Assembly (NCBI GenBank): GCA_031378375.1
Contig: JANNEF010000105.1
Location: 693 to 64,692 of the forward strand
From: Verrucomicrobiota bacterium
GTDB lineage: Bacteria > Verrucomicrobiota > Verrucomicrobiia > Limisphaerales > JANNEF01
Length of the DNA stretch: 64,000 nucleotides
Direction of reading: 5' to 3'
The notes under the pieces were generated by a model. It saw nothing but the letters and a program-made list of their open reading frames with translations, was not told the DNA's origin and did no database searches. The position numbers and the translations under genes are program-made. Of the stretch, positions 11,863 through 59,181 are shown piece after piece. Each line of letters begins with the position of its first letter. The stretch's first letter is position 1.

Positions 11863-11966
11863 GATTAATCAGTGAGTCAGTAATCAGTAAACCAGTGGTG
11901 TGGCAGCCCGGGGCAGTTACTCCGTCCGCCGGATACTGACTCACCGATTACTGGATACTGGTTCAC
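11863..11966. repeat. CAGT-word palindromic element (copy in the opp operon)
   Basis: The left arm is GATTAATCAGTGAGTCAGTAATCAGTAAACCAGTGGTG. The right arm is GGATACTGACTCACCGATTACTGGATACTGGTTCAC, built of reverse-complement words. A ~30-nt spacer separates them. Confidence 0.8.
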
Positions 11967-13629
11967 TTCCGCGCTTCTTCCGTATCGCATACACCGGATG
12001 TTCATCAATCAGGTTGGGATGAATGCCCTCGATACGCGCGGAATCGTAAAAATGAATTCCGGCGTAAAAGTAGAGCGGGACGATGGGCAGTTCGTCGCGC
12101 ACGAGCAGCGTCTCGGCTTCCCGTAAAAACTTCTCGCGTAGTCTCGGGTCGGTCTGGCGATTACCCTCGCGCACCAATTCGTCGTAGCGCGTGCTCTTCC
12201 AGCCGGTGCGGTTGTTGCCGTTGTTGCTCATGAACATGTCGAGAAACGTGTTTGGATCGTTGTAGTCCCCGACCCAACTGCTGCGGCCCACGTCGTAGTC
12301 CAGCGCGCGCAACGCGACCAGATACACTTTCCACTCCGCCTGGCGCAATTCCATACGGATGCCCAGTTCCCGTTGCCACATCGCCTGGATTTCCACGCTG
12401 ATCTGCTCGTCGGTCTTGCCGGTGTTGAACAGGTACTGGAACACCGGAAACCCCTTGCCGCCGGGAAAGCCGGCCTGCGCCAGAAGCTTCCGCGCCTGAT
12501 CCGGATCGTAGTCCAGACCTGCGGGCGGATCGTAAACCGGCATTCCCCTGGGCGTGAAATGCGCCGCCACCCGCTCGCCGCCGCGCGTGATTTTTTCGAC
12601 GATGCGCCGCTTGTCCACCGCCAGCGCCAGCGCCCGGCGCACCCGCACGTCGTCGAAGGGCTTCCGCGTCACGTTGTAGCGGTAGAACAGCGTGCCGAGA
12701 TAATCAAACGTGTGGCAGTCCGGGCGGCGCCGCAACGCGTCCATCAACTGGCCGGGGACCAGCGACTTGTCCCAGATGATGTCCGCCCGGCCGGTGAGAT
12801 AGAGATTGATGGCCGTCATCGGCGAGTCCATCGAGAGAAAATCCACCACGGAACTGTGGACGTTCGCCGCGTCCCAGTAGCGCGGATTGCGGCGCACGCG
12901 GATGCGGTCCTGCAGCCGCCACTCGACCAGTTCGTACGCGCCGCTCACTGGCATCGGTGGCATCACGACCCAGCGATCGCCGTGCTTTTCGATGGCGAAC
13001 TTCGGCGCAACGGCAAGCGTCGGAAACGCGCACAGGTCCAGGAAGAACGGCGTGGGGCCAGTCAGTTCCGCCCGCACCGTGTGAGCGTCGAGCGCACGCA
13101 CGCCAACTTGTGCCGGATCTTTGATTCGGCCGCTGTTGAACTCCTCACCGTTCTTCAGGAAAAACAATTGTCCGGCGTAATCGGCGGCAGTGTTCGGGTC
13201 GAGCACTCGAATCCAGGAATAGACCACGTCCTCCGCCGTGATCGGCTGGCCGGTGGACCAGGCGGCATTGGTGCGCAGATGAAAAGTGTAGGTCGTGCCG
13301 TCCGGCGAAATCTCCCACCGGTGAGCCAGGCCCGGTTCGGGAGCCGCGTTGGTGGGATTGATGCGCGTCAATCCCTCGAAGAGCGCCCGCACTACGCGCC
13401 CGTCCGCCTGGCCAGTGATGATCGCCGGGTCGAGCGATTCCGGCTCCGCGCCGTTGATGATGACGAGGTCGGCGCGAGACGGAACGGCCGGGCGGGCGGA
13501 AAGGAGCGGCAGCAACAGGAGCGGCAGCAACAGGAGCAGCAGCAACGGCAGCGGGCGCACCGCGCACGACGCCCCCAAAAAACGAAACGCCCTCTTGAAA
13601 CTCAAGAGGGCGTCCGTGGAAAACTTCAT
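11941..13629 (-). CDS. ABC transporter substrate-binding protein, family 5 (OppA/DppA-like)
   Basis: 562 aa. A Leu-run signal peptide is followed by typical family-5 segments (INGAEPESLDP, WSTGQPITAEDVVYSW, RRALALAVDK). The last 8 codons and the stop lie inside repeat element 11863-11966. Confidence 0.85.
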   Translation of the reverse strand: MKFSTDALLSFKRAFRFLGASCAVRPLPLLLLLLLPLLLLPLLSARPAVPSRADLVIINGAEPESLDPAIITGQADGRVVRALFEGLTRINPTNAAPEPGLAHRWEISPDGTTYTFHLRTNAAWSTGQPITAEDVVYSWIRVLDPNTAADYAGQLFFLKNGEEFNSGRIKDPAQVGVRALDAHTVRAELTGPTPFFLDLCAFPTLAVAPKFAIEKHGDRWVVMPPMPVSGAYELVEWRLQDRIRVRRNPRYWDAANVHSSVVDFLSMDSPMTAINLYLTGRADIIWDKSLVPGQLMDALRRRPDCHTFDYLGTLFYRYNVTRKPFDDVRVRRALALAVDKRRIVEKITRGGERVAAHFTPRGMPVYDPPAGLDYDPDQARKLLAQAGFPGGKGFPVFQYLFNTGKTDEQISVEIQAMWQRELGIRMELRQAEWKVYLVALRALDYDVGRSSWVGDYNDPNTFLDMFMSNNGNNRTGWKSTRYDELVREGNRQTDPRLREKFLREAETLLVRDELPIVPLYFYAGIHFYDSARIEGIHPNLIDEHPVYAIRKKRGSEPVSSNR

Positions 13630-13637
13630 CGCGCGGG

Positions 13638-14069
13638 CTATTTCGGCGCGGCGTTGCTGACTGCGTTTGCCACGTTGGTCGCGAGGAGCAAAGTGTTGGC
13701 CGGGGCGCTCGGCGCGGCTCCGGCCGCGTTGGTAGCCGGCTTGGGCGCGGGTGCCGGCGCAGCGGGCGTGTCGGCGACTTTTTCCGCTGCGGTCAGTTTC
13801 AAACGCGGGTCGCCACCCTTTTTGCGCGACTGCTGGGCGCTCAAGACGGACAGCGCCAGCGTGAGGACGAAAAAGACCACCGTGGCGTACTTGGTTGTCT
13901 TGGTGAGAAAATCACCGGAACCGGCGCCAAACAGCGCGTCGGTGGCGGCACCCCCAAAAGCCAGCCCACCGCCCGTGTCCTTCTTCGGCTTCTGCGCCAG
14001 AATCAAAAGTCCCAACACCAGGCAGTCCAGCACCAACACGACCGTCAACAATCCAATAATCCAAATCAT
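13638..14069 (-). CDS. secG: Preprotein translocase subunit SecG (with Ala/Pro-rich C-terminal tail)
   Basis: The N-terminal 75 aa match the SecG pattern (two TM helices, KDTGGGLAFGGAATDALFGAGSGDFLTK). It lies next to tpiA, as in many bacteria. Confidence 0.85.
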   Translation of the reverse strand: MIWIIGLLTVVLVLDCLVLGLLILAQKPKKDTGGGLAFGGAATDALFGAGSGDFLTKTTKYATVVFFVLTLALSVLSAQQSRKKGGDPRLKLTAAEKVADTPAAPAPAPKPATNAAGAAPSAPANTLLLATNVANAVSNAAPK

Positions 14070-14082
14070 AGTTTTCTTTCGT

Positions 14083-14847
14083 TCAAATGGAGTTCTTCAC
14101 GATATCCGCGAAACTCCGGTCTTCCAGCGAGGCACCGCCCACCAGCGCGCCATCCACATCGGGCTGGCTCATCAATTCCCGCGCGTTCGCCGGTTTGACG
14201 CTGCCACCATATTGAATCCGCACGCGCCGCGCAACCGTCTCGTCAAACAACTTCACCAGCAACCCGCGAATGTAGGCGTGCGCCTCCTGCGCCTGCGCCG
14301 TCGTCGCTGTCCGGCCGGTGCCGATGGCCCAGACCGGCTCATAGGCGATGATGGTTTCTTCCATCTGCGCCTTGCTCAAGCCGGCCAGGCTGCCGCGCAC
14401 CTGCGTGCCCAGAACTGTTTCCATCTGCCCCGCCTCGCGCTCCGCCAGCGTTTCGCCGACGCAGACGATGGGCTTGAGCGATGCGCCGTGGGCCGCGAAA
14501 GCCTTCTTGGAAATCAACTCATCGCTCTCCCGCTGGTACTGCCGCCGCTCGGAATGGCCGAGGATGACGTAACGCACGGAAAATTCCTTCAACATGCCGG
14601 CGGCGATTTCGCCAGTGTAGGCGCCGGAATTGTGCTCGCTCATGTTCTGCGCCCCGAGGCGGATGTTCGAGTCAAGGATCGCCTTGGAAACCTCGCCCAG
14701 GGCGGTGAATGGCGGGCAGACGACGATGTCCACTTCCTTCACATCCTTGCACTCACGTTTGATGGCGGCGACCAAAGCCAGCGCCTCGGCCACGGTCTTG
14801 TTCATCTTCCAGTTGCCGGCGATGATCAGTTTGCGTTCTTTGTCCAC
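14083..14847 (-). CDS. tpiA: Triosephosphate isomerase
   Basis: Track ORF 14083..15147 trimmed to the GTG at 14847 (MDKERKLIIAGNWKMN). Also has ILGHSERR, IVCVGE, IAYEPVWAIGTG and YGGSV. The upstream 100 codons overlap pgk and are Arg-rich. Confidence 0.92.
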   Translation of the reverse strand: MDKERKLIIAGNWKMNKTVAEALALVAAIKRECKDVKEVDIVVCPPFTALGEVSKAILDSNIRLGAQNMSEHNSGAYTGEIAAGMLKEFSVRYVILGHSERRQYQRESDELISKKAFAAHGASLKPIVCVGETLAEREAGQMETVLGTQVRGSLAGLSKAQMEETIIAYEPVWAIGTGRTATTAQAQEAHAYIRGLLVKLFDETVARRVRIQYGGSVKPANARELMSQPDVDGALVGGASLEDRSFADIVKNSI

Positions 14848-14894
14848 GGGGTCGGTAAGGGTTGTTGATTTCTGGTTTCGGGTGGACGCGGGCG

Positions 14895-16151
14895 TCACTT
14901 CTCCGTCAAGACCGCCACTCCCGGCAGCACCGTGCCTTCGAGGAATTCCAGGCTCGCGCCGCCGCCGGTGCTCATGAAGGTCACCCGGTTGCCGAGGCCG
15001 GCCTGATTGAGCGCCTTCACGCTGTCGCCGCCGCCGATGATGCTCTTGGCTCCGTTCTTCTGCGTTGCTTGGACGACGGCCTGCGCCACGGCATTGGTGC
15101 CCTCGGCGAAGCGCTGGTCCTCGAACATGCCCATCGGGCCGTTCCACAGAATGGTTTTCGCGCCGTGGATGACCCCGGCGTAAGTCTTCGCCGTCTCCGG
15201 CCCGATGTCGAAACCCTCGGCGTCGTCGGGAATATCCAGCGCGCTGTTGAGCCGCGCGTTCTGAAATTCAAACACGGGTCTGCCCTTTTTGTTGACCTTG
15301 CCGGTGTCCACGGGCGTGGCGATCACATTGTCCTTGGGCAGGAGGAAACGCACGCCGCGCTCGGCGGCCTTGGCCAGCGCGCGGGCGGCGACATGCACGG
15401 CGTCCTTTTCCACCAGCGATTTGCCCGTCGTGTAGCCCAGCGCCAGCCGGAAGGTGTACGCCATCGCGCCACCGATCAAAATCGTGTCGGCCTTCTCCAG
15501 CAACCGGTCAATGACCTTGATCTTGTCGGAGACCTTTGCGCCACCAAGGATGACGACAAAGGGATGCGGCGGCCGCTCCAGTTCGTCGCCGAGAAATTTC
15601 AGCTCGCGCTCCATCAACAACCCGGCCGCGCATTGCCCGCCGCGTTGGGCTATAACCCGAGCCACGCCTTCCGTCGAAGCATGGGCGCGATGGGCCGCGC
15701 CAAAAGCGTCGTTCACGTAAACGTCGGCGACCCGAGCCAGCTTCTCCGCGAACCCGGCGTCATTGGCTTCTTCTTCCTGGTGGTAACGGACGTTTTCCAG
15801 CAGCAACACGTCGCCTTCCTTCAGCAGGCCGACGGTCTGTTCAACTTTTTCGCCGATGCACTCATCCACAAACGCCACCGGGCGGTGCAGCATGTCCGCC
15901 AGTTTGGCCGCCACGGGCCGCAGGGACATGGTCGGCTCGCGCTGGCCTTTGGGCCGGCCCAAGTGCGCGGCGAGGATGATTTTCGCGCCTTGCTGGATCA
16001 GCCGGTCGAGCGTCGGGAGCGTTTCCTTGATGCGGGTGACGTCGTTGATGACCATCTGCCCGTCCCGATCTTCCATCGGGACGTTGTAATCCACGCGCAC
16101 CAGCACACGTTTGCCGCGCACGTTCAAATCGTTGACCGTCAGTTTCGCCAT
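14895..16151 (-). CDS. pgk: Phosphoglycerate kinase
   Basis: 418 aa with RVDYNVP, AHLGRPKG, VILGGAKVSDKI, GGGDS and STGGGASLEFLEG. Confidence 0.95.
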   Translation of the reverse strand: MAKLTVNDLNVRGKRVLVRVDYNVPMEDRDGQMVINDVTRIKETLPTLDRLIQQGAKIILAAHLGRPKGQREPTMSLRPVAAKLADMLHRPVAFVDECIGEKVEQTVGLLKEGDVLLLENVRYHQEEEANDAGFAEKLARVADVYVNDAFGAAHRAHASTEGVARVIAQRGGQCAAGLLMERELKFLGDELERPPHPFVVILGGAKVSDKIKVIDRLLEKADTILIGGAMAYTFRLALGYTTGKSLVEKDAVHVAARALAKAAERGVRFLLPKDNVIATPVDTGKVNKKGRPVFEFQNARLNSALDIPDDAEGFDIGPETAKTYAGVIHGAKTILWNGPMGMFEDQRFAEGTNAVAQAVVQATQKNGAKSIIGGGDSVKALNQAGLGNRVTFMSTGGGASLEFLEGTVLPGVAVLTEK

Positions 16152-16214
16152 ACCAATAAGGGCGCAGAGAATAGCGAAGCGCGTTGATGAGTCAAAGGGA
16201 ATTCAATTGCCCCG

Positions 16215-17039
16215 TCAGTAGCGCGGCGCTTCCCACGCGAGGATGGCGCGTTTGCGCGCCGTGCCCCAGCGGTAGCCACGCACCAGGCCCGTCTCGCGAA
16301 TCACCCGGTGGCAGGGGATGAGGAACGCGACCGGATTGCGACCACAGGCGGTGCCCACGGCCCGGATGGCGCGTGGCTCGCCGATCGTCCGGGCAATCTG
16401 GCCGTAGCTCGCCACGCAGCCGGAGGGGATGCGGAGCAAAGCCCGCCAGACCTTGACCTGAAACGGCGTGCCGTGAACGAAGGCGCTCAGTGGCGCGCTT
16501 GCTCCGGGATGCCGGTTGAAGATCACCTTGATCTGACAGCGCGCGTTTCGGTCGTCGCGAATGCGCGCCGCCGCCGCCCAGCCTTCCGCCAGTTCAAGCG
16601 GCTCACCGTCATCCGTCGCCGGGTCGGGGAATCCCAGATGGCAAATCCCGCGCGCGTTCCAGCCAATCGAGCAACGGCCGAACGGACTCTCGGCGAAGCC
16701 CCAGCGTAACTGCGTGCCCGCGCCACGGTTTTTCCATTCTCCCGGCGACGCCGCCTCCAGCGTGACCAGCAGGTCGTGCAGGCGGCCGGGACCGGACAGG
16801 CCGGCGTCCAGCGCGGCCTCGATGACACTCGTCGATTCACGCAGCCGCCGCTTGGCGAACTCGGCCGTGAGGCATTGCAGGAAATCCTTCGGCGTCACTC
16901 CCGCCCAATGGCGAAACAGGCGATGGAAATGCGACTGGCTGAGTCCGGCGACCGCCGCCAGTTCTGCGAGCGAAGGCTGCGCGTCGGGTTGCTCATCGAG
17001 CAGGCGGATGACGCGCGCAATCCGTTCGTAATCGTTCAT
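16215..17039 (-). CDS. Ada-like fusion: AraC-type HTH + O6-alkylguanine-DNA alkyltransferase
   Basis: 274 aa. The N-terminus is an AraC HTH (LAELAAVAGLSQSHFHRLFRHWAGVTPKDF). The C-terminus is an MGMT domain with the active site IPCHRV and TPFQVKVWRALLRIPSG. Confidence 0.88.
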   Translation of the reverse strand: MNDYERIARVIRLLDEQPDAQPSLAELAAVAGLSQSHFHRLFRHWAGVTPKDFLQCLTAEFAKRRLRESTSVIEAALDAGLSGPGRLHDLLVTLEAASPGEWKNRGAGTQLRWGFAESPFGRCSIGWNARGICHLGFPDPATDDGEPLELAEGWAAAARIRDDRNARCQIKVIFNRHPGASAPLSAFVHGTPFQVKVWRALLRIPSGCVASYGQIARTIGEPRAIRAVGTACGRNPVAFLIPCHRVIRETGLVRGYRWGTARKRAILAWEAPRY

Positions 17040-26656: not shown

Positions 26657-26660
26657 GGGG

Positions 26661-26786
26661 AATAGTAATCAGTGGGTCAATAATCAGTGAATCAGTCACT
26701 GAGAAGCGAGGTTCACCGTCCCGCATAGCTGCGATCGCCATTGATCACTGGTTCACTGATTACTGACCTACTGACCCACTGACAAC
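26661..26786. repeat. CAGT-word palindromic element (batA-batB intergenic copy)
   Basis: The left arm is AGTAATCAGTGGGTCAATAATCAGTGAATCAGTCACTGAG. The right arm is TTGATCACTGGTTCACTGATTACTGACCTACTGACCCACTGAC, e.g. TCAGTGGGTCA pairs with TGACCCACTGA. The spacer is ~37 nt. Confidence 0.85.
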
Positions 26787-38541: not shown

Positions 38542-38642
38542 CTCACTCAAGCAATCGGCAGATTTGGCGAAGTGTTTACTGTCCACGGCAATATATTTTC
38601 CCGTTCCGCCCCAGAGTGCAAACTGTTCCCGGCGATTTTTGA

Positions 38643-38677
38643 CTCGAAACCCGAAACTCGAAACTCGAAACTCGCCC
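38643..38677. repeat. Heptamer tandem array (CTCGAAA)x5, directly upstream of the ispD start
   Basis: CTCGAAA CCCGAAA CTCGAAA CTCGAAA CTCGCCC, ending 1 nt before the ispD ATG (38679). Confidence 0.9.
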
Positions 38678-46716: not shown

Positions 46717-46992
46717 ATCCAACAGACTCCCAGTTCACTTCCCGCCAGCGTGCGCAAAAAGAGTCAACCGGCGAAGGTTGCGACTCGGGTTGTACCCGCA
46801 TCGAAGTGCGTCGAGCAGTGCCGGAACCTCTTGGAATGGGCCTTCTGACTGCGCCAGTTTCTCTCCCAAGGCCAATGGATTGGCGGCTTTGCAACGGTGC
46901 TGAATTCGTTTCACGCAATCGTTGGAAACAATTCATGCACCAGAATGGCGCCGGGGCCGCCGCTGGCATTGGGCCTGCAAGTGGCGGAGTAG

Positions 46993-48240
46993 ATGAATCA
47001 CGAACCATCGTTTTGGAAGGCCGGACACTTGCCCACGTTGATCGGCGCGTTCCTTTGCTTCTGCGTTTGTTCGATGTGCTGGCTGCTGCTCGGCGGGCTG
47101 GGCAATCACATCGGGGCGGACCTCGGCTTGACGCCGTTGCAAAAGGGATTGCTCGCCGCCGTTCCGTTGCTGGGCGGCGCGCTGTTGCGGCTGCCGTTCG
47201 GCTGGCTCACCGACGCCATCGGCGCGAAGCGGACCGGATTGCTCGTGCTCGCGGCGACCGCCGTGCCGGTGCTGATGGGCTGGCTGTGGGCGCAGTCGTT
47301 CGCGAGCCTGCTGGTCGTGGGCTTTCTCCTCGGCGTCGCGGGCGCGAGTTTCGTCGTTGCGCTGCCGATGGCCAGCCGCTGGTATCCACCGCAATTTCAG
47401 GGACTGGCCATGGGCCTGGCGGGACTCGGACTGACGGGCACATTGTTCGCGACATTTCTTGGACCGCGGCTGGCGGAACGGTTTGGCTGGCAGAATGTCT
47501 TCGGCCTCGCGCTGATTCCCCTGGCGGTCGTCGCAGTTTTGTTCCTGGTGTTTACCAAGGACGCGCCCTGCGTTGTGCGCCGCCAAAGCCTCGCGGACTT
47601 CGCGGGCATGTTGCGCGAGCGCGACATGATTTTGTTCAGCCTGTTCTACGGTGTGACGTTTGGCGGGTTCGTCGGCTTCGCGAGCTTTCTTTCCATCCTC
47701 CTGGGCGACCAATACGGCCTCACCAAAGTCCGCGCCGGCGAACTCGCCGCGCTTGGCGTGATGGCCGGCAGCCTGGTGCGTCCGCTCGGCGGATTGCTCG
47801 CGGACAAGTTCGGCGGCATCCGCATGCTCAACGTGCTGTTCGGCGTGGTCGCGCTGCTCGCGATGGGTGTGGCGCAATTACCCGCCCTGCCCATCACGGT
47901 CGGGCTGTTCGTGGTCGCGATGGCCTGCCTCGGCCTCGGCAATGGCTCGGTCTTTCAGCTCATGCCGCATCGTTACGGCACGCGCGTCGGTGTGGCCACG
48001 GGCATTCTCGGCGCGGCGGGGAGCTTCGGCGGATTTTTTCTGCCGACGCTGCTTGGCTGGCTCAAGCAAACCACCGGCACTTACAGCGGCGGCATGGCGG
48101 TGCTGGCGGCGCTGGCCGTCGTTGCGCTCATCGTGCTGGCGGTGGTGCAGACGGAATGGGTCGGCGTCTGGATCGGCAAACACGGCCGCGTCGAATCGCG
48201 GCCGGCGACCCCGCCAATCAGGGAAGCCAACATCGCCTGA
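46993..48240 (+). CDS. narK: MFS nitrate/nitrite transporter (NarK/NasA-type)
   Basis: 415 aa with 12 predicted TM segments. GADLGLTPLQKGLLAAVPLLGGALLRLPFGWLTD and GAAGSFGGFFLP resemble the NNP-family signatures. Confidence 0.85.
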   Translation: MNHEPSFWKAGHLPTLIGAFLCFCVCSMCWLLLGGLGNHIGADLGLTPLQKGLLAAVPLLGGALLRLPFGWLTDAIGAKRTGLLVLAATAVPVLMGWLWAQSFASLLVVGFLLGVAGASFVVALPMASRWYPPQFQGLAMGLAGLGLTGTLFATFLGPRLAERFGWQNVFGLALIPLAVVAVLFLVFTKDAPCVVRRQSLADFAGMLRERDMILFSLFYGVTFGGFVGFASFLSILLGDQYGLTKVRAGELAALGVMAGSLVRPLGGLLADKFGGIRMLNVLFGVVALLAMGVAQLPALPITVGLFVVAMACLGLGNGSVFQLMPHRYGTRVGVATGILGAAGSFGGFFLPTLLGWLKQTTGTYSGGMAVLAALAVVALIVLAVVQTEWVGVWIGKHGRVESRPATPPIREANIA

Positions 48241-48247
48241 TTCGCCG

Positions 48248-49960
48248 ATGCCCAGCCCGCCTTCAACCAGACAACCCTTGCGCGAATCCGACACGAACGA
48301 CGGGCGCACGCTGATTGACGACTTGCTCGCCGAGCAGCGTCAACTCACCGCCGTCGAACAATTCTCCCGCGCGCACGACGCCCACGAAGTCCACGGCCGC
48401 CGCTACCGCGATCTGCTTCCCGCCAATGCGCCCGCGCCCGGACAGCAATACGCCTTCGAGGTGGACCTCGACCAGTGCAGCGGCTGCAAGGCGTGCGTGA
48501 CCGCGTGCCATTCGCTCAACGGCCTCGACGACGACGAGACCTGGCGCAGCGTCGGCGCGTTGCACTCCGCCAATGTGCGCCAGCCGCTCAAACAGATCGT
48601 CACCACGGCCTGTCATCATTGCGTGGATCCCGGTTGCCTCACCGGCTGTCCCGTGCTCGCCTACGACAAAGACCCCGTCACGGGCATCGTTCGCCACCTG
48701 GATGACCAGTGCATCGGCTGCCAGTATTGCGTGATGAAATGTCCCTACGAGGTGCCGCAGTACTCGAAGACTCGCGGCATCGTGCGCAAGTGCGACATGT
48801 GCAGCTCGCGCCTCGCCGTCGGTGAAGCCCCCGCGTGCGTGCAAGCCTGCCCGAACGAGGCGATCCGCATCACGGTGGTGGATCAGGCGAAGGTGCGCGG
48901 GAAGTATCGCAGGCTAAAATCCGAAGGCCGAAATCCGAAATCCGAATCAAATCCGAAGGCCGATAACCAAAACTCGCCATTCGGATTTCGGAATTCTTTC
49001 GGGCTTCGGGCTTCAGATTTCGGATTTCACAACTCCTTCCTCCCCGACTCGCCGAATCCCGCCATCACGCTTCCGACGACCCGTTACGTTTCCAAGCGCG
49101 CCCTGCCCGGCGACCTCGAAGCCGCTGACGCCCATGAACTCCGCCGCGCGAAGCCGCATCCGCCGCTCACCCTCATGCTGGTGCTCACCCAACTCGGCGC
49201 GGGGCTGGCGCTGATGGACGCGCTCACGGGCGGCGCGGCGCGGATGCTGGCAGCCGTCGCCCTCGCGGCCAGCGCCCTCGGCGTCGTCGCGGGCACGCTG
49301 CACCTGGGCCAGCCGCTCAAGGCGTGGCGCAGTTTTCTCGGCTGGCGCAAATCATGGCTGAGTCGCGAGTTGATTGCCTTCGGCGCTTTCGTCGGCGTGC
49401 TCGGCTCGCATCTGGCCATTGGCCGTCCGCTCTCCGCCGGTCTCGCCGCGCTCACCGGACTCCTCGCGGTCGCGTGCTCGGCGATGGTTTACGCGGACAC
49501 GCGCCGGCCGTTCTGGAACGCGCCGATGACATTTGGAAAATTCCTCGGCACCACGCTGTTGCTCGGCGGGGCGGGGTCCCTGTTGCTGTCGGCGCTTGCC
49601 ACGAATCCACTCCTGCCGCGCCCTCTGGTGGTCGCCGTGATCGTGCTCGGCACCATCTTCAAGCTGGCCGTGGAGAATCGCATCTTCCGCTTTCTCGTGG
49701 ACGAACAAGACCCGCACCTCACCGCTCTCAACAAGACCGCCCTGCTGCTCAACGGCCTGTTCGGCCGGCTCTCGCGCGGTCGCGTGGCTTGCGCCCTCGC
49801 GGGTGGAGTGGTGCTTCCGGCGTTGATGCTTGTCACCGGCGCGGGCGTCGCCTTGCCCGCGTTGGCGCTGACGTTGTGCGTCGCGGGTGAACTCATCGAG
49901 CGCCATCTCTTTTTCGTCGCCGAGGTCGCGCCCAAAATGCCGGGAGGCCGGGGAGTATGA
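48248..49960 (+). CDS. Fusion of a 4x[4Fe-4S] ferredoxin (DmsB/NrfC-like) and a DmsC-like polytopic membrane anchor
   Basis: Track ORF trimmed to the ATG at 48248. It has four Cys clusters ([41 protein letters not shown]...CVQACP). About 8 hydrophobic helices follow, from residue ~300. The stop overlaps the nasA start (ATGA). Confidence 0.8.
48915..49030. repeat. AATCCGA-word palindromic element (in-frame copy inside the FeS/DmsC gene)
   Basis: The left arm is TAAAATCCGAAGGCCGAAATCCGAAATCCGAATCAAATCCGAAGGCCGA, followed by a 15-nt spacer. The right arm is ATTCGGATTTCGGAATTCTTTCGGGCTTCGGGCTTCAGATTTCGGATTTCAC. It is translated as [39 protein letters not shown]. Confidence 0.85.
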
Positions 49961-52362
49961 AGACCACGGGAGCCACAACCAGGCGCGCGGCTGTGGTCGC
50001 AGACCCAGCCGCAGCGCCCACGCAACGACAACGAGCTGCGGCTGATCCTACGGACCCAGCCGCGCTCCAATCGAACTCCCTTCTCCGTCAATGGAGCGGC
50101 CCGCTGTCCTCCGACCTCACGTTGCATCCCGGCGACTTTGGTCTCGGCAGAATCCCCGCCCGCCTTCGCCCCGACGCCACCACACGCTCCATCTGCGGCT
50201 TCTGCTCCACGGGCTGTTCGCTTGACGTTCACCTGCAATCCGGCGTGGCCGTGAACCTCACGCCCACGGTGGACTATCCGGTGAATCTGGGCATGGCGTG
50301 CCCGAAAGGCTGGGAGGCGCTCACCTGTCTGGCCGCGCCGGATCGCGCCACACAACCGCTTTTGCGCAATCCCGACACCGGCAAACTCGAACCCACCGAC
50401 TGGGACGAAGCGATGCAGGTCTTCACGCTGAAGTTCAAGGCGCTGATGGATCAGCACGGGCCGGAGAGTGTGGCGTTTCTCAGCACCGGCCAGATTTGCA
50501 CGGAGGAGATGGCGCTCCTCGGCGCGCTTTGGAAGTTCGGCATGGGCGCGTTGCACGGCGACTCGAACACGCGCCAGTGCATGGCCACCAGCCACGTTGC
50601 CTACAAGCAGAGCTTCGGCTTCGACGCGCCGCCCTACACCTACGCGGACTTCGAGGAGTCGGACACGCTCGTCTTCATCGGCTCGAATCTCTGCATCGCG
50701 CACCCGATTCTCTGGCAGCGCGTCCTGCGGAACAAAAAAAATCCCGCCCTCATCGTCATTGACCCGCGCAAGACGGAGACGGCGATGAACGCGACCCAGC
50801 ACGTCGCGCTGCGGCCCAAGTCCGACCTCACGCTGCTCTACGGCCTGGCGAACCTGCTGGTGCAGGGCGGCTGGATTGACCGCGCGTTCATCGAGCGCAG
50901 CACGACGGGATTCGCGGAGTTCGCGGAGTTCGTGCGGCAGTTCACACCCGACAAAGTTGCGGCGGAGACCGGCTTGACCGTGGGCGAATTGTCCCGCGTC
51001 GCCGAGACCATCGCGAAGGGCAAGGCCGTGAGTTTCTGGTGGACGATGGGCGTGAACCAGAGCCACGAGAGCACGCGCACCGCGCAGGCCGTCATCAATC
51101 TCGCGCTGATGACCGGCAACATCGGCCGTCCCGGCACCGGCGCGAACAGCATCACCGGCCAGTGCAACGCGATGGGCTCGCGCCTGTTCGCCAACGCCTC
51201 GGGACTGCTTGGCGGGCGCGACTTCCTCAACGCTGAACATCGCGCCGAGGTATCGCGCGCGTTGCACATCGCGCCGGAAAGCATTCCCGCGAAGAACTCG
51301 CTCGCCTACGACCAAATCATGCAGGGCATCGCCGAGGGCCGGATCAAGGGCCTATGGGTCATCGCCACGAACACGGCGCACTCGTGGATTGATTCCGCCC
51401 GCGCCTGTGGCGCACTCGACAAGCTGGAATTTCTCGTCGTGCAGGACATGTTCACGACCACCGACACGGCGAAACGCGCGCATCTGATTTTGCCCGCCGC
51501 CGGCTGGGGCGAGAAGGAGGGCACGTTCATAAACAGCGAGCGGCGCTTCGGTCACATCAAGAAAGTGTCACGCGCGCCCGGCCAGGCGTTGAGCGATTTT
51601 AACATCTTCCGCCTGGTAGCCGAATACTGGGGCTGCGCCGGGATGTTCAGCCAGTGGACTTCGCCGCAGGCCGTTTTCCAAATCCTGAAAAGACTTTCCG
51701 CCGGTCGCCCGTGCGACATCACGGGCATCGAAGACTACCGGCATCTGGATGCGAGCGGCGGGATTCAGTGGCCGCTGGCAAAAGAACGTGAGTCAGTAAT
51801 CAGTGAGCCAGTGACCAGTGAACGCGAGATGGCGACGGGTTCCGCTACTGATTCACTGAATACTGGCGCACTGATTACTGATCACTCTCCCCGCGAACGC
51901 CGCCTCTTCGCCGACGGCAAGTTCTTCACTCCCGATGGCCGCGCAAAATTCCTCTTTGACCCGCCACGTCCCGTCGCCGAGCCGGTGGACAGCGAGTATC
52001 CGTTCGTGCTGTTGACCGGACGCGGCACGAGCGCGCAATGGCACACAAACACGCGCACCGGCAAGTCCGCCGTCTTGCGCACGCTGTATCCGGCCAACCC
52101 CTACGTGGAGATCCATCCGAAAGACGCCGCGCGATTGCGAATCGAACCAAACACGACCGTCGCCGTCATCTCACGACGCGGGCGCGTTGAGTGCGCCGCG
52201 GTGGTCACACCCATCGTGCAGCCCGGACAGGTCTTCATCCCGATGCATTACGACCTGACGAACCAATTGACCCGCGCCGAGTTCGATCCGCACTCGCGCC
52301 AGCCCAGCTACAAACATTGCGCAGTGCGAATTGAACCGACGCGCAACGGTTCCAACAAATGA
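49957..52362 (+). CDS. nasA: Molybdopterin (bis-MGD) oxidoreductase, assimilatory nitrate reductase type (NasA/NarB-like)
   Basis: 801 aa with an N-terminal FeS motif ([10 protein letters not shown]...CPKG) and MGD-binding segments ([14 protein letters not shown]). The C-terminal barrel has [20 protein letters not shown] and the tail [10 protein letters not shown]. Confidence 0.85.
51788..51887. repeat. CAGT-word palindromic element (in-frame copy inside nasA)
   Basis: The left arm is GTGAGTCAGTAATCAGTGAGCCAGTGACCAGTGAAC, followed by a 23-nt spacer. The right arm is TACTGATTCACTGAATACTGGCGCACTGATTACTGATCACTC. It is translated as [33 protein letters not shown]. Confidence 0.85.
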
Positions 52363-54233
52363 GCGCCACGGAGTCCAACATCGTTGAGTTGCCCAAGTCG
52401 CCCGGACGCGAATTCACGCCCGAGCAAAAGGAATATCTCGCCGGCTTCATGGCAGGCATCGCGCAGCGCGGAATGATCCCCTTCGTCGGCGCGATGCCGG
52501 ATGGCCGCCTCACCGCTGACCCGGCGCACGGCGGCGACAATCTCGCCGCGCCGCGCGAGGAGACGGTGTTCGGCACGCCGCTCTCGGAGTTATGCAAACA
52601 GGAGCGATGGAAGTACGAGGAAAACCCGCTGGACGTTTGGGACAAGCTGCTCGCCTGCGCCGAGCAGGACAAACTACCCGACGAGGCGGACACTTTTCGC
52701 TTTCGGGCGCACGGCCTGTTCAACGTCGCCCCGGCGCAGAACGCCTTCATGCTGCGCTGCCGCATCCCCGCCGGCGAGTTGACGGCGGCGCAACTCAAGG
52801 GCCTCGCCGACATCGCGGAGGAATGGGGCGGCGGCTGGGCGGACATCACCACGCGGTCGAATATCCAGATTCGACAAATTGCGCCGCGCCACATCATCAA
52901 GGTGCTGACGCGGCTGCAGGAACTCGGACTCACCGCGCGCGGTTCCGGCGTGGACAACATTCGAAATGTCACCGCGTCGCCCACGGCGGGCTTCGACGCG
53001 GCGGAGTTGATTGACACGCGCCCGCTGGCGCACGCGCTGCACCACTACATCCTCAATCACCGCGACCTCTACGGGCTGCCGCGCAAGTTCAACGTCGCCT
53101 TCGACGGCGGCGGCGCGGTGAGCGCGGTGGCGGACACGAATGACATCGGGTTCGTGGCGGTACGAGTGGCGCAGGCTTCCAGCCTGAGTCCGGCGGGCTT
53201 GCCGCCCGCGAATCTGGGGCAGGGTGCCCCAAGCGGCAGGCTGGAAGCCTGCCCCACTATCGAGCCCGGCACCTACTTCCGCGTCGAACTCGCCGGCATC
53301 ACCGGGCACCGGCAGTTCGCGAAGGACGCGGGCATTCTCGTGAAGCCGGGCGAATGCCTGGCCGTCGCCGCCGCGATGATTCGCGTGTTCTGTGAGCACG
53401 GCGACCGTACCGACCGCAAGAAGGCGCGGCTGAAATACCTGATTGATAAGTGGGGCATCCCGAAGTTCCTCGAAGCGACGCAAGCGAAACTCGCCTTTGC
53501 GCTCCGTCATTTTCCGTTGGAGCAGTGCGAGCCGCGCCATCCGGCGGTGAAGCACGGGCACATCGGCGTGTTCAAGCAGGCGCAGCGCAACTTGAACTAC
53601 GTCGGCGTCGTCATCCCCGTGGGCCGGATGCAGGCGCGGCAAATGCGCCGGCTCGCCGACCTCGCGGCAAATTACGGCTCTGGCCACCTGCGCCTGACGC
53701 CGTGGCAGAATCTGCTATTGCCGAACATCCCCGACGGTTTCGTCGAGACGGTGAAGCGCAATCTCCTCCGCATCGGTTTCCACTATGAAGCCAGCACCAT
53801 CGCCGGCGGCCTCGTCGCCTGCACCGGCAACACCGGTTGTAAGTGGGCCGCGACGAACACCAAGGGCCAGGCGGTGGAGCTGGCGCGCTATCTGGAAAAG
53901 CGCGTGCAACTCGACCAGCCGATCAACATCCATCTCACCGGCTGCCCGAACTCCTGCGCGCAGCACTACATGGGCGACATCGGCCTGCAAGGGGCGCGCG
54001 TCACGTTGAGCGGCGAGTCGGTGGAGGCGTATCACGTCGTGCTTGGTGGCGGTTACGGCGCGGAGCAGGCGGTAGCAAAGGAAGTGTTCAAAGGCATCCC
54101 GTTCTCCGCGCTGCCGGAGCTGCTGGAGCGGGTGCTCATTGTTTACCAGGAGAAGCGGGCGGCGGGCGAGAGCTTCGCCGCGTTCACGCGCCGGCATGAA
54201 GTGAAACAACTGCAAGAGATGTTTTCTGAGTGA
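52359..54233 (+). CDS. nirA: Sirohaem/[4Fe-4S] nitrite (or sulfite) reductase hemoprotein, NirA-type
   Basis: 624 aa. It has duplicated NIR_SIR halves and the cluster/sirohaem Cys motif ([11 protein letters not shown]...[17 protein letters not shown]). The start overlaps the nasA stop (ATGA). Confidence 0.85.
53171..53252. repeat. Inverted-repeat element inside nirA (in frame)
   Basis: Perfect 16-bp inverted repeat GCAGGCTTCCAGCCTG (53171-86) / CAGGCTGGAAGCCTGC (53237-52). It encloses two small hairpins (GCGGG-CTTGCCG-CCCGC and GGGGCA-GGG-TGCCCC). It is translated as [28 protein letters not shown]. Confidence 0.8.
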
Positions 54234-56017
54234 TGGAAACCAACTTGATTCCCTACCTGCCCGACACGGCGCCGTTCACGCCGGAGCAACGAGCCTATTT
54301 GAACGGGCTGTTCGCCGGCCTGTTCGCCCACGCGCCGCGCGCCACCAACCCGGCGCCTGCCGCCAAGCCACTGCTACCGCTGACCATTCTGTTTGGCTCG
54401 CAGACCGGCAATGCGGAGGCGCTCGCCAAGCGCGTCGCCAAGGAAGCCGGCAAGCAGGGCTTCGCGCCGACGATCTTTGACGCGGCGCAATATCCGCGCG
54501 AGCAACTCAAGACCGAGAAGCATCTGCTGCTCATCACCAGCACCTACGGTGACGGCGAACCGCCGGACAACGCAAAGGACCTGTGGGAATTTCTCACCGC
54601 CACCACCGCACCCGCGCTGCCGGAGTTGAAGTTCTCCGTGCTGGCCCTGGGCGACACGAACTACGAAAAGTTCTGCGAGTGCGGGAAAAACTTCGACCGC
54701 CGCTTCCATGAGCTGGGCGCACACCGGGCGCATCCGCGCGTGGATTGCGACGTGGACTTTGAGGAGCCATTCGGGAACTGGCTGGCCGGCGCGTTGGGCG
54801 CGCTGGCAGGCGGTGGGGGAGTAATCAGTGAATCAGTAATCAGTAGGTCAGTGACCAGTGCGCCCGTCTCTGCCACTGATTCACTGGTTACTGGTTACTC
54901 GCGCGCCCACCCGTTCCCCGCCCCGCTCGTCGCCAACCGCCGGCTCAACGCTCCCGGCTCGGGCAAGGACACGCGGCATTTTGAAATCGCACTCGACGGC
55001 AGCGGCTTGACCTATGAAGTCGGCGACGCGCTGGGGGTGGTGCCGGCGAATTGCCCGGAACTCGCGGACGAGATGCTTCGCACGCTCGGCTGCACCGGCG
55101 GGGAAGCGGTGCCCGGCGCGAAGGGTGGCGAAGTCCCGCTGCGCGAGGCGCTGTTGCGGCATTACGACATCACGAAGATTGCCCAGCCGCTCTTGCAGGC
55201 AATGGCAGAGCGGAGCGGGGACGAGTTGCTCAAGCAACTCACCGCGCCCGGTGTGAACGGCGAGTTGACGAAATTTCTCTGGGGCCGCGAGATTGTTGAC
55301 CTGTTGCTGGCGCACCCGCGCGCGAAGTTCGCACCGATGGAATTTGTCGGCCTGCTCAAGAAACTTCAGCCGCGGCTCTACTCCATTTCCTCCAGCCCCA
55401 AGGCACATCCCGGCCAGGTGCATCTCACTGTCGGGGTCGTGCGCTACGAATCGCTGGGCCGGGCGCGCAAAGGCGTGTGCTCCACGTTCCTGGCGGAGCG
55501 CGCGGGCGGCGGCGCGGCGGCGCCGGTCTTCGTCCACACGAACAAAGGCTTTCGCCCGCCCGCCGATGGCAGCCGTCCGATGATCATGGTCGGGCCGGGC
55601 ACGGGCATCGCGCCGTTCCGCGCTTTTCTGGAAGAGCGTCGCGCCGTCGGCGCGACGGGAAAGAACTGGCTGTTCTTCGGCGACCAACGGTCGGAGATGG
55701 ATTTCCTCTACCGCGAAGAGCTGGAGGCGATGCATCGCGACGGCACGCTGGCGCGGCTGGACACGGCTTTCTCCCGCGATCAGGAAGAAAAGATTTACGT
55801 GCAACAGCGAATGCTCGAACACGCCACCGAACTGTTCACCTGGCTGGAGGCCGGCGCGCATTTCTACGTCTGCGGCGACGCCAACCGCATGGCGAAGGAC
55901 GTGGACCGGGCGCTGCACCAGATCATCGAGCAAGCCGGCGGACGCACGGCAGAGCCGGCGGCGGAGTACGTGAAGAAGATGCAGGCGGAGAAGCGGTATC
56001 AGCGGGATGTGTATTGA
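54230..56017 (+). CDS. Diflavin reductase, sulfite reductase flavoprotein CysJ-like (flavodoxin + FAD/NADPH domains)
   Basis: 595 aa with an FMN domain ([32 protein letters not shown]) and an FAD/NADPH domain ([42 protein letters not shown]). Start is GTG 54230 or ATG 54233; both overlap the nirA stop. Confidence 0.88.
54821..54900. repeat. CAGT-word palindromic element (in-frame copy inside the cysJ-like gene)
   Basis: The left arm is GTAATCAGTGAATCAGTAATCAGTAGGTCAGTGACCAGTG, followed by a 13-nt spacer. The right arm is CACTGATTCACTGGTTACTGGTTACTC. It is translated as [27 protein letters not shown]. Confidence 0.85.
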
Positions 56018-57315: not shown

Positions 57316-58791
57316 TCAGTGGATGTCGCGGCCGAACGGGGGAATCTCCTTGTGCCAGCCGGTGCTTTGCTCGTAGGCGTGTGCAACTTTCAGCAGCGTT
57401 GCTTCGCCAAAGGGTTTGCCCAGCACTTGCAGGCCAATCGGCAACTTTGGGCTTTGCGAGAAACCGCACGGCAGGCTCACGCCGCAGATGCCCGCCAGGT
57501 TGCACGAGATGGTGAAGATGTCCGAGAGATACATCCGCATCGGATCGTCGGACTTCTCGCCAACCTTGAACGCGGGCGTGGGCGTCGTCGGCGTCACTAT
57601 GGCATCCACCCGCTCGAACGCCCTGAGAAAATCCTGGCGGATGAGCGTGCGGACTTTTTGCGCGCGCAGGTAGTAGGCGTCGTAGTAACCGCTGCTCAGA
57701 ACGTAGGTGCCGAGGATGATGCGCCGCTTGACCTCCGCGCCGAAGCCCGCCCCGCGCGTCCGGCTGTATAGTTCCGTGGGGTCCGCGCCGTCCACCCGCG
57801 CGCCGTAGCGGATGCCGTCAAAGCGGGCGAGGTTCGCACTCGCCTCGGCGGTGGCGATGATGTAGTAGGTCGCCACCGCGTAATCGGTGTGCGGGAGGGA
57901 GATTTCCACAAGTTCCGCGCCGAGTTGCTCCAACTGCTTCACGGCCGCTTGCACAGCAGCGGTCACTTCCGGGTCGAGGCCGCCGATGAAATATTCCTTC
58001 GGCAGGCCGAGTTTCAGCCCTTTGATGTCGCCCGTGAGCGCGGCGGTGTAGTCGGGCACGGGCTCCGGCACGCTGGTCGAATCGCGTTCGTCGCGACCGC
58101 TGATGACGCCGAGCATCGTTGCCGCGTCACGCACGTCCTTGGTGAAGGGGCCGATCTGGTCGAGCGACGACGCGAAGGCCACGAGGCCGTAGCGAGAGAC
58201 GCGGCCGTAGGTGGGCTTCAAACCCACGCACCCGCACAACGCGGCCGGTTGGCGGATGGACCCGCCGGTGTCGGAGCCAAGCGTGGCGAACGCCTCGTCC
58301 GCCGCCACCGCCGCCGCCGAACCGCCGGAGGAACCGCCGGGGATGCGCGTGCTGTCCCAGGGATTGCGCGTGGTGACGAACGCCGAGTTCTCCGTCGAGC
58401 TGCCCATCGCAAACTCATCCATGTTCAGCCGGCCGAAGACAATCGCCCCGGCGGCCCTGAGCTTCTCAACCACGGTGGCGTCGTAGGGGGAAACGTATTT
58501 GCCGAGAATTTTCGACCCGCAGTTGAGCGGCTGGTTTTTGACGGCGATGACGTCCTTGAGCGCGACGGGCACTCCAAGCAGCGGCTTGGCAGAGGCCGCG
58601 CCGACGGCGATCTGTTTGTCCGCCGCGTCGGCCTGCGTCAGCGCGTCGGCAGCGTCAAGGCTGAGGAAGGCGTGGAGCTGGCCGTCCACGCGGGCGATCT
58701 GGTCGAGACAGGCCTGGGTGGCGTCGCGGGCGGAAACTTCGCGTTTGGCGAGCTTGACGCGGAGTTGCGAGAGGGTCAGTTGGTGCAGCAT
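57316..58791 (-). CDS. gatA: Glu-tRNA(Gln)/Asp-tRNA(Asn) amidotransferase subunit A
   Basis: Amidase signature [13 protein letters not shown] and [13 protein letters not shown]. The start is set to the ATG at 58791 ([11 protein letters not shown]). The track start at 58833 is a TTG overlapping gatC and cannot be excluded. Confidence 0.92.
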
Positions 58792-59146: not shown

Positions 59147-59181
59147 CAAAGTTCAAAGTTCAAAGTTCAAAGTTCAAAGGG
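59147..59181. repeat. Heptamer tandem array (CAAAGTT)x5 upstream of gatC
   Basis: CAAAGTT x4 followed by CAAAGGG, located 25-59 nt upstream of the gatC start (59122, minus strand). Confidence 0.9.

Follow-up and report, generated by a model that had tools for sequence, protein, structure and literature searches.

In-frame selfish palindromes are textbook material in Rickettsia, where they are regarded as a curiosity of reduced genomes. Here we describe palindromic repeats of several families that lie in frame within four consecutive nitrate- and nitrite-reduction genes of a Verrucomicrobiota bacterium, on a 64,000-nt stretch of contig JANNEF010000105.1 (assembly GCA_031378375.1) that is called the window below. 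As far as the accounts in PMC10969869 and PMC3733652 go, the Rickettsia palindromic elements (RPEs; Ogata et al. 2000) are short dispersed palindromes of ~100-150 nt, with several families per genome, which occur between genes and also in frame in housekeeping genes, where they are translated as lineage-specific extra surface or loop peptides. Repetitive extragenic palindromic (REP) sequences and MITEs (miniature transposable elements with inverted repeats) provide further precedent, with RPEs, for repeats inside open reading frames (ORFs) (PMC3733652, PMC10969869). Di Nocera et al. 2013 (PMC3733652) reported that the verrucomicrobium Opitutus terrae is rich in GTAG REPs and that some of these lie within ORFs, so an earlier note on this DNA, which knew of no described equivalent in the Planctomycetes-Verrucomicrobia-Chlamydiae (PVC) group, was mistaken on that point.

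The window elements resemble RPEs in being palindromic dispersed repeats that lie in frame in functional genes and are absent from orthologues. They differ from RPEs in their host, a free-living PVC bacterium with a large genome as against a reduced intracellular alphaproteobacterium, in their size of 80-116 nt, in the tandem 7/8-nt words that make up the arms of three of the five, and in that different families reoccupy the same protein site in close relatives. RPEs are therefore taken as an analogue and not as the family itself, the likeness being one of behaviour and judged by description. Cyanobacterial short tandemly repeated repetitive (STRR) sequences, ascribed to Mazel et al. 1990, are reportedly tandem heptanucleotide arrays, some with words ending in CAGT, that are dispersed in non-coding DNA. 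Measured against that description, the window has dispersed tandem 7-nt arrays too, as found with Tandem Repeats Finder (TRF); unlike STRRs, they are paired as inverted arms with a loop of 20-30 nt between them, and they are found in PVC bacteria and within genes. Both analogies, which had been drawn in the earlier note, are apt in that dispersed palindromes are inserted in frame and have copies outside genes.

Two of the elements recall REPs. That in nirA is built like a REPIN, a pair of inverted small GC-rich palindromes with a spacer (PMC3116915, PMC2817692, PMC3733652), and that in the N-terminal extension of NasA is a doublet of small palindromes; the intergenic copies of the window also lie, like REPs, between co-directional genes. 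The heptamer-word elements do not have the two-unit layout of the nirA element and are unlike canonical REPs, and the arms in the window start with (A)GTGG, not with GTAG (or CGTC). GTAG-tagged hairpins are present in many related loci (for example L033, in frame at the NasA site, L002, L013 and L067). With MITEs such as Correia/NEMIS, ERIC/RU, Nezha and Coxiella QMITE1 (PMC10969869, PMC5896051, PMC2759123) the elements share small size, non-autonomous inverted repeats, in-frame fusions and stable RNA folds. Unlike MITEs, they show no target-site duplication or recognisable terminal inverted repeats derived from an insertion sequence (IS), and the whole element is a hairpin, whereas a MITE consists of terminal repeats around an unrelated core. 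A literature search returned general REP, MITE and RPE papers, with no description of heptamer hairpins in PVC bacteria or of STRR stem-loops, and a text search for the exact repeat words found none.

In-frame palindromes in the reductase genes

The earlier note had flagged one palindromic segment in each of the four genes. All four are real palindromes: their arms measure 18-47 nt and show 74-95% complementarity, and their RNA folds have z values from -5.1 to -8.1 (Table 1); z was calculated against 200 dinucleotide shuffles, and for these segments none of the 200 folded as well. The four are among the five strongest hairpins of the 64 kb in a GC-corrected scan of minimum free energy over 110 nt, and a strict inverted-repeat finder returned exactly five inverted repeats in the window, namely these four and one intergenic one. 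As had been proposed, each of the four is translated in the frame of its gene, tandem 7/8-nt words make up the arms of three, and the NirA segment is a stem around nested hairpins. TRF gave period 7, or the 7/8 alternation that appears as 15, in arms at 48917, 48980, 51788, 54820, 54883, 11866 and 26667. The supposition of exactly one insertion per gene holds only in part, as nasA carries a second element near its start. Nor is there a single kind of element, since they fall into at least four different families, which can be named by word as CAGT-word, AATCCGA-type, GCAGGCTTCCAGCCTGC-type and GGCTGTGGTCGCAGACCCAGCCGC-type. No Rfam family matched the window at the gathering threshold, nor did any reach E <= 1 within 48800-55000. 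The sixth-strongest fold of the window (57791-57900, z -3.6) lies inside a gatA-like amidase gene and is a GC-rich branched structure and not a word-repeat palindrome.

The four proteins were aligned from 80 related genome loci; loci and contigs are given below as L numbers and NasA homologues as P numbers. Short baseline loops were found in Planctomycetes, Sorangium, Poribacteria and many Chthoniobacterales. The gene 1 junction measures 33 aa in the first three of these groups against 72 aa in the window, the NasA loop (GGIQWP to FFTPDGRA) 19 aa in outgroups against 49 aa, and the NirA loop 6 aa, as KVGDEI, in many orthologues against 37 aa. A long CysJ hinge of variable length is found in all lineages. 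Inserts of 10-90 aa occur at these same sites in Limisphaerales-like Verrucomicrobia and some Planctomycetes. The expectation of lineage-specific in-frame indels at short-linker positions was thus borne out at the gene 1, NasA and NirA sites, and the outgroup phyla have no homologous peptide at the sites. Expansion is correlated among the four sites across genomes, which suggests that it reflects the genome-wide load of elements. The sites are located between Pfam domains or in segments that have no aligned counterpart in the solved structures of NapA, nitrite reductase (NiR) and sulfite reductase flavoprotein (SiR-FP). The NasA insert may be disordered: residues 614-646 have a predicted local distance difference test score below 50 in an AlphaFold model, which is itself moderate (mean 67.6), several cofactor-binding regions being of low confidence as well.

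The NasA internal and CysJ elements, both of the CAGT-word family, each have one stop-free frame of six, and it is the frame of the host gene. Each CAGT-family arm is open in a single frame, and in all coding copies found the arms read VIS(E/K)S...TDSL(I/N)T. Both intergenic CAGT copies of the window have stops in all six frames. Ribosomes are known to bypass coding sequence in phage T4 gene 60 and at the mitochondrial 'byp' elements of yeasts, and stable hairpins within coding sequence might be taken to mean that the inserts are untranslated, either bypassed or removed from the mRNA. Given that genic copies are all multiples of three and free of stops while the window intergenic copies are closed, translation is indicated rather than bypassing, and we regard untranslated inserts as extremely improbable. 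The inserts would then be made as loop peptides that are presumably neutral or nearly so.

It is also highly improbable that the inserts are selected flexible Ser/Thr/Gly linkers which tune domain movement or partner docking, with the DNA palindrome incidental. Their inter-domain positions and the length and variability of the CysJ hinge in every lineage would fit such a role. However, a linker does not need a DNA palindrome, the same DNA stands between genes with stops in all frames, a single element can be translated in one frame at one site and in another frame elsewhere, and near-identical orthologues exist that lack the insert.

Table 1. Palindromic elements and genes of the window. Inverted-repeat limits, arm length and complementarity, fold energy and z are given where available.
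Feature	Position	Strand	Description	Inverted repeat and RNA fold
Gene 1 element	48915-49030	+	FeS-DmsC junction, in frame; AATCCGA/AGGCCGA heptamer arms; TRF period 7	48917-49027; 47-nt arms, 74% complementary; -45.7 kcal/mol, z -5.1
NasA internal element	51788-51887	+	CAGT-word (7/8-nt) foldback hairpin, in frame, between GGIQWP and ERRLF	51793-51881; 30-nt arms, 87% complementary; -53.5 kcal/mol, z -8.1
NirA element	53165-53258	+	REPIN-like, in frame; two inverted GCAGGCT-TCC-AGCCTGC copies around two nested hairpins; spacer between units 50 nt	Outer stem with 22-nt arms, 95% complementary; -69.3 kcal/mol, z -6.3
CysJ element	54820-54900	+	CAGT-word foldback hairpin, in frame, flavodoxin-FAD hinge	54820-54892; 18-nt arms, 94% complementary; z -5.7
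Fifth element, NasA N-terminal extension	49982-50068	+	In-frame doublet of two small palindromes, GGCTGTGGTCGCAGACCCAGCCGC type, codons 9-38	-52.2 kcal/mol, z -5.7
Intergenic CAGT-word hairpin	11866-11970	.	Between co-directional minus-strand peptide-transporter binding protein and permease genes	z -4.2
Intergenic CAGT-word hairpin	26660-26785	.	Between co-directional BatA/VWA genes; ends 5 nt before ATG 26790	z -6.0
MFS transporter gene	46993-48240	+	Pfam; GC content at third codon positions (GC3) 0.83	
Gene 1, 4Fe-4S (DmsB-like) domain and DmsC-like membrane anchor fusion	48248-49960	+	Pfam Fer4_11 residues 117-208, DmsC 339-556	
nasA, assimilatory nitrate reductase catalytic subunit	49957-52362	+	Pfam Molybdop_Fe4S4, Molybdopterin, Molydop_binding; homologues carry the source name nitrate reductase	
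nirA, ferredoxin-nitrite/sulfite reductase family	52359-54233	+	Pfam NIR_SIR, NIR_SIR_ferr; PDB nitrite reductases E = 1e-69	
CysJ-like flavoprotein gene, GTG start	54230-56017	+	Pfam flavodoxin, FAD and NAD domains; PDB sulfite reductase flavoprotein E = 4e-127	

Copies elsewhere and turnover at fixed sites

The CAGT-word pattern matched 12 times in the window against 0.46 expected. Scanning of JGI metagenomes with a CAGT-hairpin pattern matched at least 120 contigs, and 97 of the 122 matches listed were multi-word CAGT hairpins, with 34 of these at contig ends, 57 outside long ORFs and 6 inside ORFs. The ORF-internal copies among the matches listed include two DUF1553/PSD proteins, a PSCyt protein and a U32 peptidase. 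Both checks suggested in the earlier note, a search for further copies of the words and a comparison of the arms with shuffled sequence, spoke for genuine repeats: the segments fold better than shuffles, and copies were found in the window, where two are intergenic, and in metagenomes, mostly outside long ORFs in non-coding DNA. Other families recur as well. In an Opitutaceae genome (L069, 21467-21510) the 16-nt arms of the NirA element recur unchanged as a simple, perfect hairpin whose loop measures 11 nt. The NasA N-terminal element contains the 27-mer GGCTGTGGTCGCAGACCCAGCCGCAGC, which recurs without a change in the internal loop of NasA in L008 and in near-identical form in L004 and L009, and is read in another frame there. 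When 2.9 million viral contigs were searched with the CAGT pattern, the 21 matches were all due to chance and none was a genuine element, so there is no link to phages.

Several observations were made on the metagenome copies. The commonest CAGT subfamily among the matches listed is highly conserved and has the form AAAGTAATCAGTAATCAGTGTGTCAGTAATCAGT - loop - ACTGATTACTGAC(N)(N)ACTGATTACTGATTACTTT (L085, L096, L101, L120, L130, L163, L169 and others). One triplet, GTG facing NNA, is constantly non-complementary, and GGTGGC...GCCACC flanks lie on the outside. Hairpin-binding transposases recognise features such as an asymmetric internal mismatch. Copies of a second subfamily (GTGAATCAGTAGGACAGTGAGACAGTACAAACACTGT..CTACTGTCCTACTGATTCAC; L086, L087, L091, L103, L104, L109 and ~20 more) are near-identical and lie on short contigs, usually at the contig end; it may be a relative of the cyanobacterial STRRs. 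One metagenome subfamily (GTGAATCAGTAGGACAGT...) may be of cyanobacterial origin. Contigs L133 (~490-560) and L152 (~1505-1575) encode different DUF1553/PSD-type proteins with a CAGT hairpin in frame at the same position, in the context ..YRQS[SVISKSVIS..TDSLITDYS]R..RRLSAE.., which indicates that one site in an unrelated protein family is reused recurrently.

An alternative origin for the heptamer hairpins is local and repeated, at hairpin-prone sites: 7/8-nt units would slip during replication, an intrastrand template switch (fold-back synthesis) would follow, and the shared words would reflect a common mutational or repair bias. The CAGT copies of the window share words and do not share word order or loop sequence, arms match their own partner better than the arms of other copies, and neither a target-site duplication nor, among the window ORFs, a transposase was found. 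The IQW codons ATTCAGTGG directly upstream of the NasA insert themselves form a CAGT word, and one-armed, perfect or near-perfect heptamer arrays exist in the window. These arrays are (ACTCGAA)x4.7 at 38642-38674, which ends 5 nt before the ispD ATG (38679), and (CAAAGTT)x4.7 at 59147-59179, ~25 nt upstream of the start of gatC (59122) on the minus strand; neither has an inverted partner nearby, and they may be half elements or seeds of foldback repeats. Against a local origin, many metagenome copies are near-identical over ~70-80 nt, including the conserved internal mismatch and the flanks, which points to copying of a master sequence. The exact identities of 16 nt and 27 nt between different genomes and sites also oppose it, as does the share of listed multi-word copies at contig ends, where high-copy dispersed repeats are to be expected. 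Local origin is thus improbable.

Turnover was followed at the NasA site. Among 120 NasA homologues, 70-100% identical, 98 have an insert at the internal site, and at least seven classes of palindrome-derived peptide are found there, together with others that have apparently decayed. Indels in these homologues are concentrated at four hot spots only: the N-terminus, ~residue 478, residue 614 and the C-terminus. The classes have a common DNA architecture of four or five heptamers, a 21-27-nt GC-rich loop and the inverted heptamers, and the words differ by class (NNNCAGT, AGGTTGC/AAGTTGC, ACGCGGA/ATGCGGA); L081, L083, L084, L065 and L001 likewise have foldbacks of this build made from other words. 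Pairs of NasA that are 94-96% identical over 674 core columns have unrelated insert classes or none (for example P0025/P0039, P0056/P0058, P0065/P0069, P0102/P0109), and orthologues at this level of identity include empty alleles (P0109, L082). Comparison of filled with empty alleles shows that the insertion point varies by ~10 nt. In a neighbour-joining tree of the 120 NasA cores the insert classes are interleaved; the tree is poorly resolved and events cannot be counted from it. Of 48 NasA inserts examined in related loci, only about 12 still fold with z <= -2, which fits decay after insertion. An assembly artefact was ruled out by the recurrence of the architecture in many independent assemblies.

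The hot spot at ~residue 478, after TNPxHSWG, is empty in the window and filled in 12-20 of the 120 homologues (P0069, P0070, P0081, P0092, P0099, P0102, P0111, P0113 and P0119 among them), with families of the forms ..LTPALSPGEREKRSPS..LSPLPGGEGQGEG.. and ..AKVAAGILPAVEPGFQPGG..NPGGKMPPSTSGRMP...

Turnover is also visible in whole loci. L083 and L084 differ in length at the four sites of the window, at one extra site in the DmsC region and at the N-termini, while their four upstream transport/porin genes are identical in length, and L081 and L082 differ in the same pattern. The same four genes of L084 contain five palindromes in frame, which belong to other families and fold with energies as low as -134 kcal/mol; at its gene 1 junction a related TTCGGCA/TTCGGAC-heptamer hairpin stands at the same place. 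The CAGT family occupies the CysJ hinge in L013 and L020 too, where CysJ is 56-60% identical. In the nirA (12869-14902) and at the hinge of the cysJ (15010-16941) of L084 the same ~170-215-nt palindrome, CCCTCACCCCGGCCCTCTCCC...GGGAGAGGGCCGGGGTGAGGG, is present in frame; it encodes LTPALSLGERxK...LFPLPxGEGxGEGEG and folds with -134 and -110 kcal/mol, and its family is also found at the NasA site of P0029, P0031 and P0044.

These data bear on the suggestion, made in the earlier note from the distribution of one insertion per gene, that the hairpins act at the RNA level. They would be selected elements of the polycistronic mRNA, serving as exonuclease barriers, as sites for RNase III/E or, placed behind segments that encode domains, to pause ribosomes and so aid cofactor loading, with the repeats co-opted. 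That four of the five strongest hairpins of the 64 kb fall in this operon is in keeping with such a role, as are the five palindromes of L084 in the same genes with none in the four upstream transport genes, the insert at one inter-domain NasA position in most homologues, the better pairing of native than of chimeric arms, and the location of every window copy, the intergenic ones between co-directional genes included, within transcription units. However, close orthologues are empty or have unrelated inserts, about three-quarters of the NasA inserts in related loci lack significant folding, positions shift, the families are unrelated in sequence and Rfam has no match. Moreover, across the 80 loci the operon genes hold 14 of 93 strong inverted repeats in 29% of the bases, which is no enrichment. 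The argument from one insertion per gene is therefore not supported, and a selected RNA-level role is unlikely, though it keeps some probability because these elements are clearly enriched in the reductase genes.

The nitrate-assimilation locus

By Pfam content the four genes belong to a nitrate-assimilation cluster on the + strand. Its transport part consists of two NrtA-like binding proteins, a permease, two ABC ATPases, a porin and an MFS transporter, and a LysR gene lies in the region on the opposite strand. The four genes are chained by 4-nt overlaps as had been noted, with junctions at 49957-49960, 52359-52362 and 54230-54233. The start of gene 1 is most likely the ATG at 48248 and not 47867 as in the ORF list, on account of GC3 and because the upstream MFS gene occupies 46993-48240. 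Of two long listed ORFs, that at 46806-48314 (GC3 0.48) is probably not a gene, and that at 47867-49960 probably starts too early.

The nearest NasA homologues come from metagenome-assembled genomes (MAGs) of Verrucomicrobia (Limisphaerales/Pedosphaera-like), and one of them, P0001, is identical to NasA of the window. In loci L003-L084 the pair of gene 1 and nasA is kept across Verrucomicrobia, Planctomycetes, Sorangium and Poribacteria, and nirA and cysJ are placed downstream or upstream of it, swapped or absent. NirA is of two types in these loci, ~45% and ~65% identical to that of the window.

A proposed history of insertion and survival

The data show repeats that are dispersed and lineage-specific, that vary between close relatives and that are subject to a reading-frame filter. 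It is probable that several REP/REPIN/MITE-like families insert widely and that only stop-free, in-frame copies in permissive linkers survive; by analogy, the case of the RPEs would, with good probability, have its counterpart in the PVC group. Short non-autonomous palindromic repeats, one subclass of which has arms of tandem 7/8-nt words, would proliferate in this verrucomicrobial lineage and in PVC relatives, inserting at many positions. Intergenic copies would persist freely. A copy within a gene would persist if its length is a multiple of three, if it has no stop in the host frame and if it falls in a loop or linker that tolerates 25-40 extra flexible residues, and it would later decay or be replaced. 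The FeS/DmsC junction, the inter-domain loop and N-terminus of NasA, the NirA loop and the CysJ hinge would be such permissive sites, and genomes rich in elements would refill them repeatedly. The mRNA hairpins would be a by-product, with an incidental effect on mRNA stability or ribosome transit possible.

Several results weigh against this explanation. Pfam scanning of 44 window ORFs, the four operon genes included, found no transposase and no REP-associated tyrosine transposase (RAYT) or IS200-like partner, and filled and empty NasA alleles show no target-site duplication; mobility, and its mode, are for these reasons something that we infer. All five intragenic elements lie in reductase genes and none in the ~40 other genes of the window, a bias shared by L083 and L084, and random landing followed by a filter does not obviously predict this confinement. 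Unrelated families swap at one site in orthologues that are 96% identical, which calls for a very high rate of insertion, for targeting or for allelic recombination. The NirA element, with its nested hairpins, suggests that targeting could occur by nesting into existing hairpins. Finally, native hairpins exceed chimeras of their arms in stability by 8 kcal/mol, and 83% of copies beat their chimeras, which could reflect selection for the hairpin; this test was not used as evidence of selection because the structure of subfamilies and organisms confounds it.

A wider reading would join these points to the RNA-level role. The heptamer foldbacks, with four or five words and a 20-30-nt GC-rich loop, would be an undescribed self-propagating superfamily abundant in PVC and other soil and freshwater bacteria, homing to safe-harbour sites, either existing hairpins or replication- or translation-pause sites at domain boundaries, and turning over so fast that orthologues 95-96% identical would bear unrelated families. 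Operon copies would be kept because their mRNA hairpins modulate transcript stability or co-translational cofactor loading. As a whole this is doubtful.

What appears to be new, as against insertion followed by survival in permissive linkers as such, is, first, the foldback architecture of the heptamer-word elements, a family that is apparently undescribed, and, second, the rapid turnover of inserts at fixed sites. Heptamer-word foldbacks are widespread in soil and freshwater metagenomes. In-frame selfish palindromes are here highly active in free-living PVC bacteria whose genomes span several megabases, that of the complete relative behind L064 being 5.9 Mb, and the same loops of central nitrogen-assimilation enzymes have been struck repeatedly and by several families. 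Nature has in effect tested here where a protein can accommodate 25-70 additional residues. The rapid length polymorphism would confuse orthologue clustering and the annotation of MAGs, and these repeats are probably the origin of much junk sequence annotated as 'hypothetical protein'. The system also offers a tractable case for distinguishing hairpins in coding regions that are neutral passengers from those that have been co-opted.

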